Positions 1,363 through 32,133 of a stretch of DNA of 64,000 nucleotides are shown in pieces. Positions within the stretch are counted from its first letter, which is position 1. Each line of letters starts with the position of its first letter. The stretch covers positions 5,127 to 69,126 of the forward strand of contig JAZKAJ010000007.1 of assembly GCA_040389185.1 (NCBI GenBank). The letters run 5' to 3'. Under the pieces are notes generated by a model that worked only from the letters and a program-made list of their open reading frames with translations, was not told where the DNA came from and searched no databases. Source of the stretch: Patescibacteria group bacterium. Its GTDB lineage: Bacteria; Patescibacteriota; Minisyncoccia; Phycocordibacterales; CAIRYW01. A program made the translations under genes and the position numbers.

Positions 1363-3114
1363 GAAAACAAAGAAAAAGCAGAAAACTTATCAAAAAAGCG
1401 ACATACTCTCGCCCACCTTTTGGCGGAAGCGGTTATTGAAAATTACCCTAGTGTACAGTTAACTCTCGGCCCAGCGATCGACACAGGATTTTACTACGAT
1501 ATAGACTTTGGTGCTGAGAAGATCTCGGATCAAGACCTCGAAAAGATTGAAAAAACGATGCGAAAAAATCTTTCAAAATGGACAGAATTTTCACATCAAG
1601 AAGTCACTGCAGACGAAGCTAAAGCAGTATTCAAAAACAACTCATACAAAACAGAACTCATTGAGGAGATCTCCGGACGTGGCGAACCGATCACTCTCTA
1701 TACTTGCGGAGGATTCACTGATCTCTGTCGTGGAGGACACTCAGAAAATCCTGCAAAAGAAATCGGCGCTGACTCTTTCAAACTTTCTCGAGTCGCGGGC
1801 GCATACTGGCGAGGTGATGAGAAGAACAAAATGCTTACTCGTATCTACGGACTCGCATTTGATACAAAAGAAGAACTCGTTGCATACGAAACACAACTCG
1901 AAGAAGCAAAGAAACGAGATCACAAAGTTATCGGACGTGAGATGGGACTTTTTACATTCTCTCCTCTTGTTGGAGCAGGGCTTCCACTTTGGACTCCAAA
2001 AGGAACAATTATTCGAGAACTCTTGAATGATTTTGTTTGGGAACTTCGAAAAGTCAAAGGCTACGAAAAAGTATGTATTCCCCATATCACAAAAAGAGAA
2101 CTTTATGACACTTCAGGACATTGGGACAAATATGCAGACGATCTTTTCAAGATTCATACTCGTGAAGACCATCTCTATGCGATGAAGCCAATGAACTGTC
2201 CCCACCACACACAGATCTTTGATGCAGAACCCCGCAGCTACCGAGATATGCCGCAGCGATATGCAGAGACAACAATGGTATATCGAGATGAGCAATCAGG
2301 AGAACTCTCAGGACTTTCTCGAGTGCTTTCTATTACTCAAGATGATGCCCATGTATTTTGCCGTGAGACACAAATCGAAGAAGAGTGTATGGCGGTCTGG
2401 GATATTGTGGAAACTTTTTACAAGACATTTGGATTTGATCTCAAAGTCAGATTCTCAACTCATGACCCGAAAGAAAGAACTAAATATCTAGGCAGTGATG
2501 AAGTCTGGACAAAAGCAGAACTCGCACTCGAAAACTTGATGAAGAAAAAAGGAGTTGAATGGATGGACGGAACAGGCGAAGCAGCGTTTTACGGACCAAA
2601 GATCGACTTCATTGCAAAAGATTCTATCGGCCGGGTACTTCAGGTAGCAACAATCCAGCTCGACTTCAACCAGCCAAAAAACTTTGGACTCGTTTGCACA
2701 AACGAAAAAGGTGAAAAAGAACAGGTGGTGATGATCCACGCAGCGATCATGGGATCAATCGAAAGATTCATGTCGACTTTGATCGAGCACACCGCAGGAG
2801 TATTTCCACTCTGGCTCTCACCTACTCAAGTACGAATCGTTCCTATCGGTGACAATGAAATCGAGTATGCAACAAATCTCAGAAAGACCTTGCGAGAAAA
2901 TGGTATTCGAGCAGATCTCGACCTTGGTAATGATTCATTCGGTAAAAAGATTCGAAATGCTAAAACAGAAAAGATTCCATACATCGCGGTTATCGGTAAA
3001 AAAGAAGTGGAAGCAGGACAAGTCACTCTCGAAGGTAGAACTGAAAAATTTGTCTTGAGTATTGAAGATGTGGTAAAGAAATTGTTTGAAGAGACAAAAA
3101 ACAAAATTAACTAG
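1360..3114 (+). CDS. thrS: threonine--tRNA ligase (short form lacking the N-terminal TGS domain)
   Basis: 584-aa ORF with class II aaRS motifs and ThrRS-specific segments (RDHKVIGREMGLFTF, HAAIMGSIERF) and a C-terminal anticodon-binding domain. Confidence 0.93.
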   Translation: MENKEKAENLSKKRHTLAHLLAEAVIENYPSVQLTLGPAIDTGFYYDIDFGAEKISDQDLEKIEKTMRKNLSKWTEFSHQEVTADEAKAVFKNNSYKTELIEEISGRGEPITLYTCGGFTDLCRGGHSENPAKEIGADSFKLSRVAGAYWRGDEKNKMLTRIYGLAFDTKEELVAYETQLEEAKKRDHKVIGREMGLFTFSPLVGAGLPLWTPKGTIIRELLNDFVWELRKVKGYEKVCIPHITKRELYDTSGHWDKYADDLFKIHTREDHLYAMKPMNCPHHTQIFDAEPRSYRDMPQRYAETTMVYRDEQSGELSGLSRVLSITQDDAHVFCRETQIEEECMAVWDIVETFYKTFGFDLKVRFSTHDPKERTKYLGSDEVWTKAELALENLMKKKGVEWMDGTGEAAFYGPKIDFIAKDSIGRVLQVATIQLDFNQPKNFGLVCTNEKGEKEQVVMIHAAIMGSIERFMSTLIEHTAGVFPLWLSPTQVRIVPIGDNEIEYATNLRKTLRENGIRADLDLGNDSFGKKIRNAKTEKIPYIAVIGKKEVEAGQVTLEGRTEKFVLSIEDVVKKLFEETKNKIN

Positions 3115-3138
3115 GTAGAAAATAAAATTTGAAATTCA

Positions 3139-3178
3139 AACGCGCGGCACCTTTCGGGACCGCGCGTGTTTGATTTTG
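3139..3178 (+). terminator. thrS terminator hairpin (CGCGCGG...CCGCGCG) followed by a T-rich tract
   Basis: 7-bp GC stem 25 nt after the thrS stop, then TGTTTGATTTTG. Confidence 0.45.
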
Positions 3179-3476
3179 ATGTTTATAAGGTCATATTTCA
3201 GACAACGACACATTCCTCCGACTCAAGACGCTCTGATAACGCATCAAACGACAATAAGAAGGTGGTGAAAATGCGAGTGACTGAACCGTCTTGAATGTGT
3301 ACGGTTTTTGAAAACCAACTACACCCAAAACATATCAGACCATATGAACTCAAATAAGGAGCAGAATTACAGTGTGGGCACCGTGGGCAGTGTGTTTCGT
3401 CCATAATCCGCACAATAACATATTTTTTATAAAAAGCAATGGTCTCAATATATCTGTATTAAAATGACGCTCAACC

Positions 3477-3716
3477 CTACTCGGTGTTGTGCGTCTGTCC
3501 ATTAGCCGAAGCTTTAGGAAGATTACTGGGTGATGCAGCGACAAGCTTGCGAAAAAACTCAATGCTGCGCAAGCTCGGGATATCTCTCGAAAAAACAGGA
3601 GGAGGCATCGCGTGACCGGCAACAACAGTCCATCCAGGAGGCAAATCACGATAAGCACCTACACTATAATTGCGATGATCCATCCCCGAGCAGAAAGAAC
3701 GATTATTAGCATTCAT
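3477..3716 (-). CDS. hypothetical Pro-rich protein (79 aa) within a GC-rich (about 50%) non-coding-looking island; may instead be part of an ncRNA
   Basis: ORF preceded by GGAGAAAGGTAGG (RBS-like). Composition is atypical for the window. The island is bounded by the thrS terminator and terminator T1a. Confidence 0.2.
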   Translation of the reverse strand: MNANNRSFCSGMDHRNYSVGAYRDLPPGWTVVAGHAMPPPVFSRDIPSLRSIEFFRKLVAASPSNLPKASANGQTHNTE

Positions 3717-3747
3717 ATTAATATCATCCTACCTTTCTCCAATCCTA

Positions 3748-3790
3748 AAATCAAACAGCACCGCGGCGTAGCCGCGGTGCTGTTTTAAAT
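3748..3790. terminator. Family-1 conserved bidirectional terminator (T1a): A-run, CAGCACCGCGG-CGUAG-CCGCGGUGCUG, U-run
   Basis: GC-rich perfect hairpin flanked by AAAATCAAA and TTTTAAATTT. One of 5 near-identical copies in the window. Sits 38 nt past the sortase stop. Confidence 0.6.
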
Positions 3791-4581: not shown

Positions 4582-6045
4582 ATGTCTCAAGACCCACACA
4601 TTATTGTAGAAGACCATACAAACGATGCTCCAAAGAAGAGTAACTCTATTGTTCGTGGAGCAATTATAGTTGCAATTATCCTCGTACTCCTCTTTATCGC
4701 GCTTGCTATAGTTAAATTCGTACCAAAACTTATTTCTTCATTCGGTACTGCGAGTGTTTCTCTCTCTTCGCTCTTTAGCCCAAAAGAAAACATTACTGTA
4801 AGTGCTCCCTCTGAAGTGAAGAGTGGTTCGCCATTCACAGTAAGTTGGAAAAACAATGTGACTGAACCTGCAGGTTCACTTATGTGGAGCTACCAATGTG
4901 CTGACAATGTCACTGTTGAATATACTTCAACAGGAGGTCAGAGACCGGTTATTTGTAACACCCTCTTCCCCCTTCCAGCAACTGGCAACAGCTATTCTTT
5001 TGTTGCAAAAAACTCTGGTACAGCGAGTGTACCTGTCACAATGACAGTGGCACTCTATGATGCTGATATGAAAACTGTAAAGGTGCAAGGATCTACAAAT
5101 ATGACAGTACTCGCACCTGGAAGCACAGCAACTGTTGTCTCACAGTACAATCCTGATTACAGTGCCACAACAACACCAAGTACAAACAACAACTCAACAA
5201 ATACAAATACTAACGGAACAACAAAAACAACAACCAAGACAACTACGAACAATACTAATTACAATACAGGAGTTACAAATGGAACACCTGACTTAAGTGT
5301 GAGCCTCGTAAAGGTTGGACGAACACAGAACGACGGTTCATACATAAGTACAAATTCATTTGCAGAAAATGATCGAGTGACCGTGATATTTAAAGTAACA
5401 AATACCGGTACAGCTCGCTCTGGAACTTGGAGTCTCCGAGCAGATCTTCCTACAAAGACACAATCTGACAAAGTATATGTTTCTAACGCGCAGCCAGCAC
5501 TTAATCCTGGAGACTCATACCAGATGACAATCTCATTTGATGCCTTTGATCCAAACGGACGAAATATTATAATCACTATAAGCAACAACGACTACAACCA
5601 ATCAAACAATGTTTTGAATATTCCAGTCACTTCAAATGGTAACAATTCAAACAACGATAACAACAATAGCACCGGAAGTCGCCCAGATCTTACAGTCAGA
5701 ATCATTGATGTTGGAACAATGGGTAATAACAACCAGTTCTACTACTCAAACTCGCTTAATAGTAATGACAAGATCGCAGTAAAGTTTGAGATCCAGAACA
5801 TCGGCGGATCAAATTCTGGAAGCTTCCGATTCACTGCTGATCTCCCAACAAGTGACAACAATACATTCGAATCAAGTAATCAGTCATCACTTGCTCCGGG
5901 CGAAACAAGACAATACACACTTGGATTTGATAATCCAGACACCGGAACAAATACGATCACAATCGATGTCGACTCTGATAATGATATTCGAGAAAACAAT
6001 GAGAACAATAATGATGACTCGATGAGAGTTCGAATCAATAACTAA
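4582..6045 (+). CDS. membrane-anchored surface protein with Thr/Asn-rich linker and CARDB-like repeats
   Basis: N-terminal TM helix, an STN-rich low-complexity linker, and repeated PDL(S/T)V...VKVG segments typical of CARDB domains. No C-terminal LPXTG. Confidence 0.6.
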   Translation: MSQDPHIIVEDHTNDAPKKSNSIVRGAIIVAIILVLLFIALAIVKFVPKLISSFGTASVSLSSLFSPKENITVSAPSEVKSGSPFTVSWKNNVTEPAGSLMWSYQCADNVTVEYTSTGGQRPVICNTLFPLPATGNSYSFVAKNSGTASVPVTMTVALYDADMKTVKVQGSTNMTVLAPGSTATVVSQYNPDYSATTTPSTNNNSTNTNTNGTTKTTTKTTTNNTNYNTGVTNGTPDLSVSLVKVGRTQNDGSYISTNSFAENDRVTVIFKVTNTGTARSGTWSLRADLPTKTQSDKVYVSNAQPALNPGDSYQMTISFDAFDPNGRNIIITISNNDYNQSNNVLNIPVTSNGNNSNNDNNNSTGSRPDLTVRIIDVGTMGNNNQFYYSNSLNSNDKIAVKFEIQNIGGSNSGSFRFTADLPTSDNNTFESSNQSSLAPGETRQYTLGFDNPDTGTNTITIDVDSDNDIRENNENNNDDSMRVRINN

Positions 6046-18903: not shown

Positions 18904-20634
18904 TTATCTTTTGACAATAAAATCTCCCAGCACAAGAACATCAAAATTATTGTTTAAAAAAGTTCGTATCGCATCTTCGGGTGTACAAACAATAGGCTCG
19001 TTATCATTAAATGAAGTATTAAGAAGCATAGGCACTCCTGTCATATCTTCAAAACAAGAAATCAAATTATAATATCTTTCGTTCGTTTCTTCTCTTACAG
19101 TTTGAATTCTTGCAGTATGATCAATTTGCTGAATTGCTGGCACAAGAGGAATTTTATCTTCTTTGACTTTAAAAGAAAAAAGCATGAAATCTGTAGAAAT
19201 TGGAATTATTGTCGATGAAATATCAAACCAATCTTTTGCCTTGGTATACAGAACACTCGGCGCAAAGGGCCTAAAAGATTCTCTCTTTTTAATTATCTTA
19301 TTCATCTTTTCTTTCATCTCTATGGTTCGAGGATCTGCAAGCAATGATCTATTACCGAGAGCACGAGGGCCGAATTCCATTGCTCCCTGAAACCATCCAA
19401 CAATCTTTCCTTCAGCTAATAAATGTGCTGTTTCCTGAGCAATATCATCAGATTTTTTATATATTAATTTATTACTATTTATAGCAGTCAAGATTTCTTG
19501 TTCGTTGAAAGTGGGCCCTAAGTAAGCATCGTTCATAATGAACACTCTCTTATTTCCTAAGATATTTGCCCAGACATATATTGCGGCCCCCAATGCTGTG
19601 CCCGCATCGTTTGAAGCGGGTTGTATATATACATCATCAAATAAACCTGTCTCAAGAACAGCTGAATTCATTAGACAATTCAAAGCCACCCCTCCAGATA
19701 AACATAGGTTAGTAGAATTAGTCCGCTTTTTCAAAAACTCAACAAGACCAATCACAATCTCTTCAGTAATTTTTTGTAACGATGCGGCAATATGAACATA
19801 GTCTGTCTTCAAATATTCGTCAGACCACTTTTCAATTTTTTTTAAACCAAACAATTTCTCTAATGGACCAAAATCATCTGACCTGAATTTAAAAATATTA
19901 TTATCGACAGTAAAATCACCCTCTCCAATTTTCACCACTGTCTTAAATTTATCTATATACTTTTGAGGATCACCGTAAGCCGTGAAGCCCATTACCTTAC
20001 CTGCATCATATTCTGAAAATCCCAAAAATTTAGCAATTTTTTCCCAAATAAAGCCAAGTGAGTTTGGATATTCAACTTCACCCACTTTTTCTATTTTATT
20101 ATCTTTCCCATGGCCTAAAAATGCACTATCAAACTCCCCTATACCATCAATTGCAAGAACCGCCGCATCAACAAAAGGTGACACAAGATAGGAACTTGCA
20201 GCATGTGCTAGATGGTGTGGAATCCAGTGTATTTTTTTACTTATATCTACCCCGTAATACTCTGATAATTTGTTAGGGAAATTGTTTAATTTATTAAAAA
20301 ACATTTCCTCACCTTCTTTTGTGCCCCAATCACCAGATTCCTTTTCTTCTACCACATCAATATTTCTTAGACGATCCTTAGGAAAGAAAGATAGAGCAAT
20401 GAAATTCACGTCACTAAATTCTATGCCCGCATATTTTATACAGAAATTTATTGAGTTAACTGGAATGAGATCAGGGTTATCTACTCTAGCCTCCTTCCCA
20501 CGCTTAATACGAGTAAATCTTTCTTCTTCGGCCGCAGCGAGAACTTGACCGTCTTTTATAATACAGGCAGATAACTCATGATAAGCGTGATTAATGCCGA
20601 GAATATAGATTGGTTTATCTGTAACTAATTTCAT
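18904..20634 (-). CDS. carbamoyltransferase (NodU/CmcH/TobZ family)
   Basis: 576 aa. N-terminal ILGINHAYHELSACIIKDGQVLAAAEEERFTRIKRG... is typical of the carbamoyltransferase N-terminal ASKHA-like domain, with a C-terminal YrdC-like region. Confidence 0.75.
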   Translation of the reverse strand: MKLVTDKPIYILGINHAYHELSACIIKDGQVLAAAEEERFTRIKRGKEARVDNPDLIPVNSINFCIKYAGIEFSDVNFIALSFFPKDRLRNIDVVEEKESGDWGTKEGEEMFFNKLNNFPNKLSEYYGVDISKKIHWIPHHLAHAASSYLVSPFVDAAVLAIDGIGEFDSAFLGHGKDNKIEKVGEVEYPNSLGFIWEKIAKFLGFSEYDAGKVMGFTAYGDPQKYIDKFKTVVKIGEGDFTVDNNIFKFRSDDFGPLEKLFGLKKIEKWSDEYLKTDYVHIAASLQKITEEIVIGLVEFLKKRTNSTNLCLSGGVALNCLMNSAVLETGLFDDVYIQPASNDAGTALGAAIYVWANILGNKRVFIMNDAYLGPTFNEQEILTAINSNKLIYKKSDDIAQETAHLLAEGKIVGWFQGAMEFGPRALGNRSLLADPRTIEMKEKMNKIIKKRESFRPFAPSVLYTKAKDWFDISSTIIPISTDFMLFSFKVKEDKIPLVPAIQQIDHTARIQTVREETNERYYNLISCFEDMTGVPMLLNTSFNDNEPIVCTPEDAIRTFLNNNFDVLVLGDFIVKR

Positions 20635-20927
20635 ATACTAATTATAACCAATATATTAAAAAGGCAAAATGAAAATGATTCGCCCCCCTACGGGAGCTGT
20701 GCATTTTTTGGGTTTTTACTTCATAAATTCATAAAAAATCTCAAAGGGTCTTGCGGTCAGGTCCCTATCCCGACCTCACCCAGAATCTCTCCTTCGCCTC
20801 TCAACTTGCCGTCGCAAGTTTCGGACTAGGCACCAGCTCGCTTGTTTCTGAAGCTTCAGAAACATAGCTCCGCTGTTCGAGTCTGGACGCAAGCAAAACC
20901 ATTTGCTTGCTGAGGCGACTCCATAAT

Positions 20928-20965
20928 AAAATCCCCAATGCATTTCTGCACCGGGGATTTTTCTT
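20928..20965. terminator. bidirectional terminator hairpin AAAUCCCC-(15 nt)-GGGGAUUU with T-run
   Basis: 7-8 bp stem directly 3' of tRNA-Thr (minus) and 3' of the structured region on the plus strand. T-runs on both sides. Confidence 0.5.
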
Positions 20966-20966
20966 A

Positions 20967-21042
20967 TGGAGCCGCCTCCCAGACTCGAACTGGGGACCCT
21001 CACTTTACAAAAGTGTAGCTCTACCAACTGAGCTAAGGCGGC
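20967..21042 (-). tRNA. tRNA-Thr (anticodon UGU), CCA encoded
   Basis: The reverse complement folds as a canonical cloverleaf: GCCGCCU-UA-GCUC-AGUUGGUA-GAGC-U-ACACU-UUUGUAA-AGUGA-GGGUC-CCCAG-UUCGAGU-CUGGG-AGGCGGC-U-CCA. Confidence 0.85.
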
Positions 21043-21136
21043 AAATATTTAATTATTCAAGTTTCAAGTATCCAAGTTTTCAAGGAAATTTTGTCTTTCA
21101 CTTGATTACTTGCCAACTTGTCACTTGTTCACTTCT

Positions 21137-31395: not shown

Positions 31396-32133
31396 GTTTT
31401 AAAGACAATGCATATTTATAATTTCAAAGTTTATTGGACCCTCTCCTTACAGGAGCAGTAGACCTTTTAGATAAAATCTCACTTACACTCGATTGTATCT
31501 CAAAAGCTTCTTCCATTGGGTCCCTTACCCAATGGAAGCCCCAAAACATCTCCAAGGGGATGTGTACTATCATTATACGATCTCGCAAAATTAACTTACA
31601 TACATTACCTTTTTTTCAGCCAAAAATCAAAATTTTGAAATATTTAGATTTTATGTAATATTTATGAAAGATTATGAATCACAAATCCCCCCTGATGAAT
31701 ATTACCGCTCTCTTGATCGTAAATACACTACTTGGACACGGTCAATGCATCCGAGCTGGCACCACTCTCATGCAACCTATTCCTCGTCCGACAGGAAGAA
31801 GGGGTGAGGATCTGGATGACTGGATGTCTGAGTCTGAACAGCCACAACTCGAATTTGAAGCCTACAAATTCAAAACAGGTCTTGAACCTATCAGTTCTTT
31901 GTTTGAAGACAAAACACCAAGTCCTTTTGCTTGCCCGGCAAAAACCCATAAAGGCAATAAACTTCACCGACCCACATACTAGTGGACGGTTTTTTATTGT
32001 CAAAAAATAAATTGACAAATATGATTAGTAATGTTATTTTGATGGTCGCCCATGAGCACACCATACCTCCGCCGAAACCCTGGCCCTTGTTGTTCAATAC
32101 CTCTACGAGACCGATCCTGATTTCGAAAAGGCA

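Follow-up and report, generated by a model that had tools for sequence, protein, structure and literature searches.

Repeated structured modules, one of them with tRNA-matched arms, beside a tRNA-Thr gene of Patescibacteria

A GC-rich segment (20690-20930) between a tRNA-Thr(UGU) gene and a carbamoyltransferase gene was analysed within a 64,000-nucleotide stretch of a Patescibacteria genome, which is called the window below. The preliminary description had treated this segment as a single RNA. Our results showed that it actually consists of two separate repeated modules, named E and U. Module E forms a family whose fold is backed by covariation; it is linked to tRNA genes, carries arms matching the adjacent tRNA, is variably present among relatives and has no match in Rfam. 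Judging from sequence comparison, E and U are most likely RNA-level structured elements in the trailer of tRNA-Thr, and they appear to be tRNA-derived and may be mobile or selfish. We give about even odds to the full model, in which the repeated modules E and U make up a structured trailer that belongs to the tRNA-Thr(UGU) unit on the minus strand.

Results

The segment is GC-rich, non-coding and strongly folded

The GC content of positions 20750-20900 is 0.52-0.57, compared with 0.38 over the 64-kb window. The four helices of the preliminary description were all recovered: the palindromic helix GTTTCTGAAGCTTCAGAAAC (20845-20864), GCAAGCAAA/TTTGCTTGC (20889-20910), CTTGCCGTCGCAAG (20806-20819) and GGTCCCTATCCCGACC (20760-20775). 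Compared with dinucleotide shuffles, the plus strand folded with z = -7.0 (0/200 shuffles as good) and the minus strand with z = -4.2 (z = -5.1 for 20670-20926). The segment is rich in GC and dense in hairpins, as had been claimed, and both strands fold better than their shuffles. Since its helices are preserved by compensatory changes in relatives, the structure goes beyond chance.

The view that no convincing ORF exists here was also borne out. Only short ORFs of 38-83 aa overlap the segment, and their frames are interrupted by stop codons in the homologous copies. A small protein gene was rejected because of these stop codons. A protein search with concatenated six-frame peptides, aimed at spurious ORFs over E, gave no match.

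Module E copies the 3' half of the neighbouring tRNA around a Y-shaped core

Module E (20774-20922) lies on the minus strand beyond the terminator of tRNA-Thr, the neighbour whose 3' half it copies. The features of the region are as follows.

20967-21042, minus strand: tRNA-Thr(UGU) with encoded CCA (ARAGORN; Rfam tRNA, 62.5 bits)
20931-20958, no strand assigned: terminator-like symmetric hairpin with a 12-bp stem and the loop TTTC/GAAA (read from the sequence)
20912-20922, minus strand: a' of E, GGAGUCGCCUC, reverse complement of the tRNA-Thr acceptor 3' strand, discriminator and CC
20889-20910, minus strand: hpC of E, a 9-bp hairpin GCAAGCAAA UGGU UUUGCUUGC (helix 1 of the covariation analysis)
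20875-20887, minus strand: b' of E, UCCAGACUCGAAC, reverse complement of the tRNA-Thr T-loop and T-stem 3' strand (11/12)
20834-20875, minus strand: core arm B of E, with P3 (CAGC/GCUG), P4 and hpB (helices 3 and 4; MFE folds)
20790-20833, minus strand: core arm A of E, with P5 and hpA, the latter at 20804-20819 (helix 5)
20774-20789, minus strand: right arm of E, GAGAUUCUGGGUGAGG, direct copy of the tRNA 3' end in degraded form (11/17)
20674-20780, minus strand: unit U, three hairpins (nhmmer; CM R2, 97.9 bits; RNAalifold)
18904-20634, minus strand: carbamoyltransferase ORF
31433-31539, minus strand: second copy of unit U in the window (nhmmer, E=5.9e-12; CM R2, 89.9 bits)

In its left arm, E carries the T-loop, T-stem and acceptor 3' strand of tRNA-Thr in reverse-complement form. 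This arm is split by hpC, which is inserted between the acceptor-derived and the T-stem-derived parts. Its a' part equally matches the acceptor 5' strand, GCCGCCU, at 6/7 positions, and b' supplies the 5' strand of the closing helix P_b (helix 2), with an invariant, unpaired GAA. The right arm, which derives from the 3' part of the T-loop, the T-stem 3' strand and the first positions of the acceptor 3' strand, provides the 3' strand of P_b. Between the two arms lies the core, which is conserved, Y-shaped and ~95 nt long; it has two arms of its own and the invariant purine junctions GAA, GGA/GA and GGUG. In core arm B the GGA/GA internal loop is invariant, and hpB is the palindrome at 20845-20864. 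In the predicted fold the left and right arms pair with each other through P_b and P_a and close the core.

The window copy of E is partly degenerate, with a diverged arm A and a right arm that matches at only 11/17 positions. It has no CCA, and its acceptor-like stem is only 4-7 bp long. GAGGCGA (20794-20800) in arm A can pair with a' instead, and this alternative 7-bp stem is present in the MFE folds of the plus strand and of 20670-20926.

The hairpin at 20931-20958 is symmetric with A/T tracts on either side, which agrees with its earlier description as a bidirectional terminator. Together with its flanks it forms a palindrome with arms of ~31 nt, in which the tRNA acceptor 3' strand and CCA (20965-20979) pair with 20912-20926. 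This palindrome gives spurious miRNA-precursor matches at 20912-20978 (Rfam, E<=10). Terminators were called by reading the sequence, because the promoter/terminator scanner missed obvious hairpins with AU-rich stems.

On the other side, a promoter-like TTGCCT-15 nt-TATAAT lies between U and the ATG of the carbamoyltransferase gene. The best homologue of this protein is only 57% identical, and a scan of genome contigs with it gave only distant archaeal homologues. The gene was absent from the locus in every examined relative bearing E or U. Exact-protein look-ups returned no record for the window proteins.

Module E is a family with covarying helices

Covariance models for E (CM R1) and U (CM R2) were run over ~0.25 Mb of sequence, including the loci of relatives compared with the window (numbered with L). 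CM R1 found ten E copies at 99-172 bits, all on the same relative strand and representing ~6 independent contexts. Six of them are at the orthologous tRNA-Thr locus (window, L010, L036, L013, L014 and L058/L060). L048 has two copies within 5 kb, one after tRNA-Leu and the other after tRNA-Pro; the latter (L048b) lies in a ~170-nt spacer between two same-strand tRNA-Pro genes and has no terminator. In L007, E is located between protein genes with no tRNA nearby. The hosts of the E and U copies are Taylorbacteria-like Paceibacteria (Patescibacteria).

In the alignment of the ten copies, which was fitted to the model, 94.8% of the 466 pair cells are standard pairs, and 32/47 pairs show compensatory changes on both sides, a level reached by 0/500 shuffles. 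Controls with the E pairing slid gave 37-49%. Helix 1 (hpC) is paired in 100% of cells, with both sides changed in 5/9 pairs. The corresponding values are 97.5% and 1/4 for helix 3, 95% and 9/12 for helix 4, and 92% and 11/14 for helix 5, in which the window copy has four non-standard pairs.

E is conserved at the level of rpsB+tsf coding DNA or above, as measured by nucleotide identity. Between L013 and L010, the identity of E was 90% versus 75% for rpsB+tsf; between the window and L058, it was 67% versus 69%. The closest relative, L005 (86% nt identity), lacks both the E core and the carbamoyltransferase gene. L005 and L016/L017 carry an "empty" form with a' and another hairpin (CCCAGAC-GAUR-GUCUGGG) and no core, and L056/L057 have nothing downstream of the tRNA. 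An 18-mer scan of metagenomes returned 34 stretches, in which L036 and L048 were the only true homologues. Scans of viral contigs gave only chance matches, and blastn against a phage collection matched only the tRNA.

The arms of E follow the adjacent tRNA

The 12-mer made of the T-stem 5' strand and the reverse complement of the T-loop was compared with the T-arms of four tRNA contexts, namely Thr in two T-arm versions, Leu and Pro. The matches were 11/12, 11/12, 12/12 and 11/12. The left-arm 12-mer differs with the local tRNA (UUCGGGCUUGAA in L058, GGGAGACUCGAA in L048a and UAGGGAUUCGAA in L048b). The acceptor copy in L048 is 7/7 after both tRNA-Leu (GGGCACG) and tRNA-Pro (CGGAGUG). E thus has a tRNA-derived shell, whose acceptor and T-stem strands are able to pair.

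The clearest case is L058. In L058/L060 a near-perfect direct repeat of ~50 nt, consisting of the tRNA 3' end, CCA and terminator, flanks E, and L058 contains a third, partial copy of this repeat. The same tRNA 3'-end repeat, expected of an att remnant, is degraded to 11/17 in the window. The right arm of L058 is a direct tRNA copy at 16/16 positions plus CCA, and the second terminator copy comes after E. The MFE fold of this copy (z -6.3) comprises the acceptor-like stem, hpC, P_b, the core and a GCUCCA tail, with the acceptor-like stem stacked on the T-stem-like helix (6+6 bp).

Unit U is a second repeated module

CM R2 detected six U copies at 90-119 bits plus weaker ones, on one strand throughout. 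In the window copy at 20674-20780, H1 (20755-20775) is GGUCGGG AUAGGGA CCUGACC, H2 (~20705-20750) is AU-rich and degenerate, and H3 (20682-20697) is GCUCCC GUAG GGGGGC followed by a U-rich tail, a terminator-like site that was called by the scanner. The RNAalifold consensus of U has double changes in 15/30 pairs; U, like E (32/47), therefore has helices with compensatory changes. The second window copy (31433-31539) lies ~40 nt upstream of tRNA-Gln(CUG).

Known RNA families do not account for the segment

The preliminary description had named tmRNA, RNase P RNA, 6S RNA and SRP RNA as candidates. At the Rfam gathering threshold, none of them matched anywhere in the window or at eight loci. With E<=10 over 20550-21060, only the tRNA and spurious miRNA-type hairpins were found; with E<=5 on L036 and L048, only tRNAs and spurious hairpins were found, and no ribozyme or Intron_gpI. 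ARAGORN reported no tmRNA over the window and only the neighbouring tRNA-Thr at the segment. What stands of the candidate ncRNA is a structured, non-coding, conserved element with covariation in ten copies; the assignment to named families does not.

The sequence GGGGAUUUUAUUAUGGAGUCGCC, which had been likened to a tmRNA 5' end, is made up of two pieces, first the 3' half of the terminator of tRNA-Thr and then the copy of the tRNA-Thr acceptor 5' strand. tmRNA was rejected: RF00023/RF01849-51 were unmatched, its "GGGG..." 5' end is the terminator stem, and the open frame ends in ...RRRRDSG*, unlike a tag of the ...ALAA type. RNase P, 6S and SRP RNA (RF00010/RF00011, RF00013, RF00169) were likewise unmatched, and the element is absent in L005 and duplicated within 5 kb in L048. 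A canonical tRNA gene was rejected too, as tRNA models match only 20967-21042 and E has no anticodon arm, with the core occupying the T-loop position. A selenocysteine tRNA, considered for a hairpin with a 6-bp stem and a 4-nt loop, was dismissed on the missing anticodon arm and the silent tRNA models.

A group I intron was rejected on the absence of an RF00028 match (E<=10 and E<=5), the two-armed core of ~95 nt and the non-functional tRNA shell. This exclusion is mainly based on size and architecture, because divergent introns can escape RF00028. A hammerhead, considered for a CUGAUGA in the nested-tRNA flank of L013, was rejected since this motif is fully paired in a long palindrome and has the wrong spacing. 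TIGR-Tas arrays, which have 36-nt units with 8-12-nt repeats, were rejected as well. Gene tables and Pfam, covering ~10 kb around each E copy, showed no integrase, recombinase or transposase. Compared with MITE/BIME-like repeats, E is multi-copy and modular; its inverted arms change from one neighbouring tRNA to the next, and a target-site duplication was not recognised.

Discussion

Strand and proposed model

The strand indicators are mixed and lean toward the minus strand, as far as comparison of the copies can tell. All E copies are co-directional with the adjacent tRNA and with the genes upstream of that tRNA, and in L010 and L058 the gene just downstream of E is on the opposite strand. 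On the minus-type (tRNA) strand, G exceeds C in 10/10 E copies, and the invariant GGA/GA loop forms a tandem-GA motif on this strand only. The two most diverged copies, L014 and L007, have 8 G.U versus 1 A.C on the tRNA strand. Pooled over all E copies, the wobble counts come close to neutral (13 G.U versus 9 A.C), which is compatible with an ssDNA fold or the opposite strand. Against the minus strand, the plus strand of the window folds better (z -7.0 versus -4.2) and ends in ...GAGGCGACUCCA and the shared terminator.

In the trailer model, read-through from tRNA-Thr would transcribe E and U. Since the window copy of E is downstream of a good intrinsic terminator, its transcription would hinge on this read-through. 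E and U would then act, or be merely tolerated, at the RNA level. Module E would be a foldback or tRNA-like shell, built from the 3' half of the neighbouring tRNA around the Y-shaped core, and would represent a tRNA-derived, semi-selfish insertion rather than a housekeeping RNA. Gene conversion between palindromes or repeats, or else recurrent duplication of the tRNA 3' end, may keep the arms matched to the tRNA. A tRNA-minihelix-like fold, as predicted for L058 with 12 stacked bp, NCCA and its own terminator, may let E be excised from the precursor like a tRNA. The terminator-like last hairpin of U (20780->20674) would end the unit. The degenerate window copy of E and the broken H2 of U count against the trailer model, as does the matching of arms to Thr, Leu and Pro tRNAs, for which no mechanism has been demonstrated.

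Alternative explanations

E may instead be a DNA-level relic or miniature integrative element that integrated at the tRNA T-loop and supplied a 3' end and terminator, the displaced 3' end becoming the direct repeat. Its helices would then be a folded ssDNA recombination site, such as integron attC or CTX-phage attP, or decaying debris. The ~50-nt near-perfect repeat on both sides of E in L058, with its third partial copy, fits this, and so do the differing presence between relatives and the near-neutral wobble test, which is expected of DNA. The same locus also holds further insertions that come with partial tRNA duplications, namely a nested tRNA-Thr (L007/L013/L014) and a GIY-YIG ORF (L010-12). 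However, no integrase or transposase adjoins any copy, and one fixed attP would be unable to fit the tRNAs for Thr, Leu and Pro alike. The nested long-range helices with 32 compensated pairs and the invariant purine junctions look RNA-like, unlike pure debris, and E is as conserved as ribosomal-protein coding DNA. We consider the relic unlikely. Rather unlikely, too, is an independent tRNA-like small RNA that is encoded on the plus strand and converges on tRNA-Thr. It is in essence the "novel ncRNA" of the preliminary description, and would combine the T-loop sequence GUUCGAGUC with an acceptor-like 3' strand and UCCA, ending at the shared bidirectional terminator. The plus strand has a z of -7.0, with an MFE four-way junction closed by UCGCCUC/GAGGCGA and then CUCCA; the terminator is symmetric, the palindrome contains the complement of CCA, and L010/L036 show G.U there where the minus strand has A.C. 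But the closing stem of 7 bp is peculiar to the window copy and weak or absent in L013 and L036, so the four-way junction was rejected as a conserved fold. Moreover, hpC would sit between the T-stem 3' and acceptor 3' strands, where tRNAs lack nucleotides, and the junctions would be rich in pyrimidines (UCC/UC) and match no known motif. Terminators are lacking on both sides of L048b, no consensus promoter was found upstream on the plus strand except an AT-rich 9/12 match, each copy would be antisense to the neighbouring tRNA and its upstream genes, and the wobbles of L014 and L007 point to the minus strand.

It is quite improbable that E is a tiny, divergent self-splicing or self-cleaving RNA, that is, a group-I-like remnant or new ribozyme in the T-loop of a tandem tRNA pseudo-copy, with a T-loop-complementary guide as its 5' end. 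The tRNA genes of Patescibacteria often carry group I introns, some of which have diverged beyond the reach of RF00028 (PMC13011429). In four contexts the insert is, at its left end, exactly complementary to the local T-loop, and the junction nucleotides are conserved. However, the two-armed core is too small for a P3-P9 architecture, Intron_gpI and ribozyme models gave no match even at E<=10 or E<=5, and neither an omega-G nor a U.G pattern of splice sites was identified. Splicing would restore nothing, as the host "tRNA" lacks an anticodon arm. A housekeeping RNA overlooked by the standard models, or a 5' UTR or riboswitch of the carbamoyltransferase gene, is very improbable. CPR genomes often have divergent housekeeping RNAs, and the segment is directly upstream of the carbamoyltransferase gene on the same strand. 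But both Rfam and ARAGORN were without a match, and an element with two copies in 5 kb (L048) and none in L005 does not suit an essential single-copy RNA. The 5' UTR, which the preliminary description had itself raised, was rejected because E and/or U occur at the tRNA-Thr locus of relatives that all lack the gene; the best homologue of its product is distant, and the promoter-like site separates U from the ATG. The distribution of E and U thus already contradicts this reading.

Comparison with known systems

E resembles the att repeats of integrative elements. A duplicated tRNA 3' end flanks the insert with the junction at the T-loop, the tRNA stays intact through the supplied 3' end and terminator (clearest in L058), the occurrence is patchy, and insertions stack at one tRNA locus. 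In contrast to such elements, the E insert is only ~150-200 nt, has no recombinase gene nearby, and contains the same tRNA segment in inverted form together with a core whose covariation is RNA-like; one core is combined with arms fitted to three different tRNAs. With tRNA-like domains (tmRNA, YrlA and viral 3' tRNA-like structures), E shares an acceptor-like stem stacked on a T-stem-like helix, the lack of an anticodon arm, an NCCA tail (L058) and a large extra domain. However, it is the T-loop, and not the anticodon arm, that this domain replaces, E has no T-loop fold, tag reading frame or G3.U70, and the Rfam models of these domains were unmatched.

Like BIME/REP of E. coli, BOX of pneumococcus and Correia elements of Neisseria, E and U are short, multi-copy, hairpin-rich, intergenic and strain-variable, occur with other pieces in varying modular combinations and would be co-transcribed with their neighbours. 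Unlike them, E has arms copied from the adjacent tRNA instead of fixed terminal repeats, a nested multi-helix junction, no recognised target-site duplication and an apparently low copy number. The position in a trailer or spacer, from which tRNA processing would release the RNA, recalls the external transcribed spacers of tRNAs, such as the 3'ETS-leuZ sRNA sponge of E. coli. Known tRNA spacer RNAs of this kind are short and act by linear base-pairing; they are not known to form anything comparable to a conserved fold of 150 nt in which one arm is complementary to a tRNA. The group I introns in Patescibacteria tRNAs share with E the host phylum and a structured insert in tRNA-derived sequence, but they interrupt functional tRNAs within the anticodon loop (33/34, 35/36, 36/37) and reach full group I size (PMC13011429), whereas E, which is far too small for this, takes the T-loop position in a shell that is not functional.

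Significance

A wider possibility, which we regard as doubtful, is that E represents a new class of RNA matched to tRNAs. As a compact Y in a tRNA-minihelix-like shell, it would have a ~20-nt 5' arm complementary to the T-loop-to-acceptor segment of one tRNA and masked by an internal copy of that segment. Such an RNA could target pre-tRNA, 3' tRNA fragments or tRNA-processing enzymes, working as a tRNA-specific switch, decoy or sponge, or else it could serve as the guide of an RNA-targeted mobile element homing to tRNA T-loops. The co-evolution of arms and tRNA would then be due to function, beyond gene conversion alone.

Patescibacteria have minimal genomes with scant space for junk, yet in this lineage structured modules of 100-150 nt, as conserved as ribosomal-protein coding DNA, are kept beside tRNA genes. 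In CPR annotation, GC-rich islands of this kind will repeatedly be taken for tmRNA, RNase P RNA or novel sRNAs, which a covariance model would prevent. The tracking of the tRNA by the arms points to either an unrecognised copying or conversion of tRNA 3' halves, or an RNA acting by complementarity to a specific tRNA. The former route would bear on the evolution of tRNA loci and of integration hot spots.

The structured segment and known RNA classes

The window derives from a Patescibacteria MAG, and the closest homologue of its S2 protein carries the annotation Candidatus Taylorbacteria. The GC-rich segment of about 240 nt (20690-20930) lies in the following locus.

Features of the locus
22864-22142, minus: rpsB
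22107-21508, minus: tsf
between tsf and tRNA-Thr, minus: 120-aa ORF
21042-20967, minus: tRNA-Thr(UGU) (ARAGORN)
20958-20931: symmetric terminator hairpin between tRNA-Thr and the GC-rich segment
20922-20774, minus: larger repeated module (E)
20780-20674, minus: three-hairpin unit (U)
20634-18904, minus: carbamoyltransferase gene, 3' of the GC-rich segment

All helices named in the preliminary description were found in the window sequence at their given positions. The segment's raised GC content was borne out (up to 0.52-0.57 versus a window mean of 0.38), and its bounding terminator is the symmetric hairpin at 20958-20931. The segment folded better than dinucleotide shuffles on both strands (z -7.0 on the plus and -4.2 on the minus strand). 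The observation of a structured segment stands.

Known RNA classes were searched with Rfam and ARAGORN. At the gathering threshold, Rfam gave three tRNAs and nothing else in the whole window; at E<=10, 20550-21060 gave only the tRNA and miRNA-type matches, the latter because of the long terminator palindrome. The segment matched no tmRNA, RNase P, 6S or SRP model at either threshold, and ARAGORN found no tmRNA in the window. The string that had been taken for a tmRNA-like 5' end on the minus strand proved to consist of the terminator's 3' half and, after it, GGAGUCGCCUC. Both the housekeeping-RNA reading and the riboswitch reading were rejected. The carbamoyltransferase has a 100% identical counterpart among NCBI proteins, from a 'Patescibacteria group bacterium' (next best homologue 57%), and was found at the same locus in no related genome fetched. 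Because it has no close relatives and is missing from the locus in relatives, the segment is not its conserved leader.

Among the relatives examined, only this genome has the carbamoyltransferase gene (18904-20668, minus), which suggests recent acquisition beside the tRNA locus. TTGCCT-15 nt-TATAAT stops 6 nt ahead of its ATG, and the mRNA may be leaderless.

E is a conserved module with a covarying fold

Relatives were chosen through S2 homologues in a graded series from 94% to 69% amino-acid identity, and their contigs (L-numbers below) were fetched. The order rpsB-tsf-orf120-tRNA-Thr is kept, and the DNA 3' of tRNA-Thr is a mosaic. Part of the window segment is present nearly unchanged in L010, L013 and L014; its central ~100 nt are missing from L005 (86% nucleotide identity in rpsB-tsf) and L016/L017. 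An 18-mer metagenome scan added two true homologues, L036, which is similar to L010, and L048, a contig rich in tRNA genes.

A covariance model of E built on seven copies found ten, at 99-172 bits and on one relative strand throughout. The tRNA-Thr locus accounts for six, among them L058/L060, in which S2 shares only 69% identity with the window protein; L048 has one after tRNA-Leu(CAG) (L048a) and one after tRNA-Pro(CGG) (L048b), and L007 has one between protein genes. The distribution is patchy: E is missing from L005, L016/17, L056/57 and the L007 tRNA locus; L007 carries it at a site without a tRNA, and L048 carries two copies within 5 kb. Its conservation equals or exceeds that of rpsB+tsf coding DNA (90% vs 75% for L013-L010; 67% vs 69% for window-L058).

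The non-tRNA copy in L007 is flanked by about nine (C)CGAGACAG-like repeats (3057-3326 and 3470-3520).

Order of parts of E on the tRNA strand
Start: tRNA, then spacer or terminator
a': complement of the acceptor 3' strand
Between a' and b': AG, hairpin hpC, (C)GU
b': complement of the T-stem 3' strand and T-loop
Core: AGCGGAGC, hairpin hpB, linker with GCUGGUG(A/C)CCAGACAA
Core, continued: hairpin hpA, then UUAGUCGNGGNC
Right arm: direct copy of the T-loop 3' part, T-stem 3' strand and acceptor 3' strand

Besides hpC and the closing helix P_b, the fold has two arms: arm B, in which an invariant GGA/GA internal loop separates P3 from P4/hpB, and arm A, made of P5/hpA. In the ten-copy alignment, standard pairs fill 94.8% of pair cells and two-sided changes occur in 32/47 pairs; none of 500 shuffles was as good, and slid controls reached 37-49%. 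GAA, GGA/GA and GGUG are invariant and unpaired.

The arms of E match the adjacent tRNA

For each tRNA, a 12-mer (T-stem 5' strand plus reverse complement of the T-loop) was predicted and compared with the E arm.

Expected and observed arm 12-mers
Window / L013 / L010 (tRNA-Thr): expected CCCAGACUCGAA, observed UCCAGACUCGAA, 11/12
L058 (tRNA-Thr, T-arm CUCGG-UUCAAGC-CCGAG): expected CUCGGGCUUGAA, observed UUCGGGCUUGAA, 11/12
L048a (tRNA-Leu): expected GGGAGACUCGAA, observed GGGAGACUCGAA, 12/12
L048b (tRNA-Pro): expected CAGGGAUUCGAA, observed UAGGGAUUCGAA, 11/12

The acceptor-derived a' matches at 6/7 (Thr), 7/7 (Leu) and 7/7 (Pro). In these contexts the arms follow whichever tRNA adjoins. In L058 the right arm extends into a near-perfect ~50-nt direct repeat of the tRNA 3' end, with CCA and a second terminator whose stem is kept and whose loop differs; in the fold of its E, an acceptor-like stem of 6 bp stacks on P_b, and the tail is GCUCCA (z -6.3). 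The window E is more decayed (right arm 11/17, arm A diverged), and its internal GAGGCGA is an alternative 7-bp partner of a'.

Beyond the second terminator of L058, the tRNA-Thr 3' end is repeated once more, in part and in direct orientation (CCCGAGAGGAC, 4716-4730). This third copy suggests that duplication or integration events followed one another at the site.

Two descriptions fit the E shell. It may be a foldback, with an inverted copy of the tRNA 3' half as one arm and a direct copy as the other; this is favoured by the contiguous 12-mer, which takes in the T-loop reverse complement. It may also be a tandem tRNA-like copy (acceptor 5' strand, D-arm-position hairpin, T-stem, replaced T-loop) without an anticodon arm, favoured because 'empty' alleles have a D-arm-like hairpin (AGCUCA...GAGC in L005). 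Arm-to-arm or repeat gene conversion, repeated tRNA 3'-end duplication on integration, and functional co-evolution are candidate routes to arms matching three different tRNAs.

The tRNA-Thr locus holds other events of insert plus partial tRNA duplication. L013 (7756-8116), L007 (11706-12090) and L014 (2366-2760) have one tRNA nested inside another: hairpin insertions interrupt a degenerate 'outer' tRNA-Thr at three places (D-loop, anticodon loop and ahead of the T-arm), and the one in the anticodon loop holds an intact 'inner' tRNA-Thr with no encoded CCA, topping a palindromic leader/trailer stem of ~35 bp. In L010 (6009-6245), L011 and L012, a 78-aa GIY-YIG-like ORF (MFYTYVLKSIKDGQLYIGW..., domain assigned by reading the sequence) has the intact tRNA-Thr on one side and, on the other, a duplicate of its 5' fragment that carries an inserted hairpin, suggesting nuclease-associated insertion on the 5' side of the gene. 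At another locus, between convergent tRNA-Pro(UGG) and tRNA-Pro(GGG) of L048 (4288-4470), a palindromic terminator and an inverted T-arm copy (CGAGAUUCGAAC) are followed by ~110 nt of other GC-rich sequence and then by a tRNA-Pro 3' end copied in direct orientation; this is the E architecture around an unrelated core.

U, a second module with three hairpins

U makes up the segment's 3' third (20780-20674) and is separate from E.

Order of parts of U
First: H1 GGUCGGG-AUAGGGA-CCYGACC, GCAAG, long AU-rich H2
Then: GUACUG, H3, GCGAAGG

Six copies scored 90-119 bits, with weaker ones besides, on a single strand throughout; 15/30 pairs carry double changes, and L016 has U in tandem duplicate. In the segment's copy H2 is degenerate, and H3 with its U-rich tail looks like a terminator. 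A second window copy (31539-31433, minus) lies ~40 nt upstream of tRNA-Gln(CUG).

TATAAT occurs further upstream of this second copy (~31577), and U is separated from tRNA-Gln by a weaker TATAAA, so that U may or may not belong to the tRNA-Gln leader.

The other GC-rich island (3140-3790), which had also been proposed for searching, matched neither Rfam nor the covariance models of E (R1) and U (R2). It holds a minus-strand 79-aa ORF (3477-3716) flanked by GC-rich hairpins (~3140-3168 and ~3757-3786), and looks like a small gene or pseudogene rather than an RNA.

Strand and nature of the modules

Wobble counts over the E copies (13 G.U vs 9 A.C) did not decide the strand. Several indicators favour the tRNA strand, the minus strand of the window. 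Every E copy points the same way as its neighbouring tRNA and the genes upstream of that tRNA, and the spacer that holds L048b, flanked by two tRNA genes on one strand, has no terminator. On this strand G exceeds C in 10/10 copies, the most diverged copies show 8 G.U vs 1 A.C, and hpC sits at the usual exit point of tRNA arms; the GGA/GA tandem-purine loop is present on this strand only. Against it, the plus strand of the window folds better, E lies beyond a good terminator, and L010/L036 show A.C on the minus-equivalent strand; a plus-strand sRNA remains a less likely alternative. So does a DNA-level integrative relic, for which the tRNA-end duplications and the patchy distribution speak and against which the paired changes speak; no recombinase was found in the roughly 10 kb examined around each E copy. 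A mini-ribozyme, with the invariant unpaired bases in its favour, remains as well. Patescibacteria tRNA genes contain group I introns (PMC13011429), and no element resembling E was described in the literature searched.

Of the proposed unannotated ncRNA, a conserved structured element without an Rfam match is upheld; the known housekeeping identities fell away, and the single RNA became E plus U. In conclusion, the segment is a real, conserved, structured element missing from Rfam. In our reading it consists of modules in the tRNA trailer that belong to a repeat family derived from tRNA and specific to the lineage; most likely they are RNA-level elements of the minus strand and semi-selfish.
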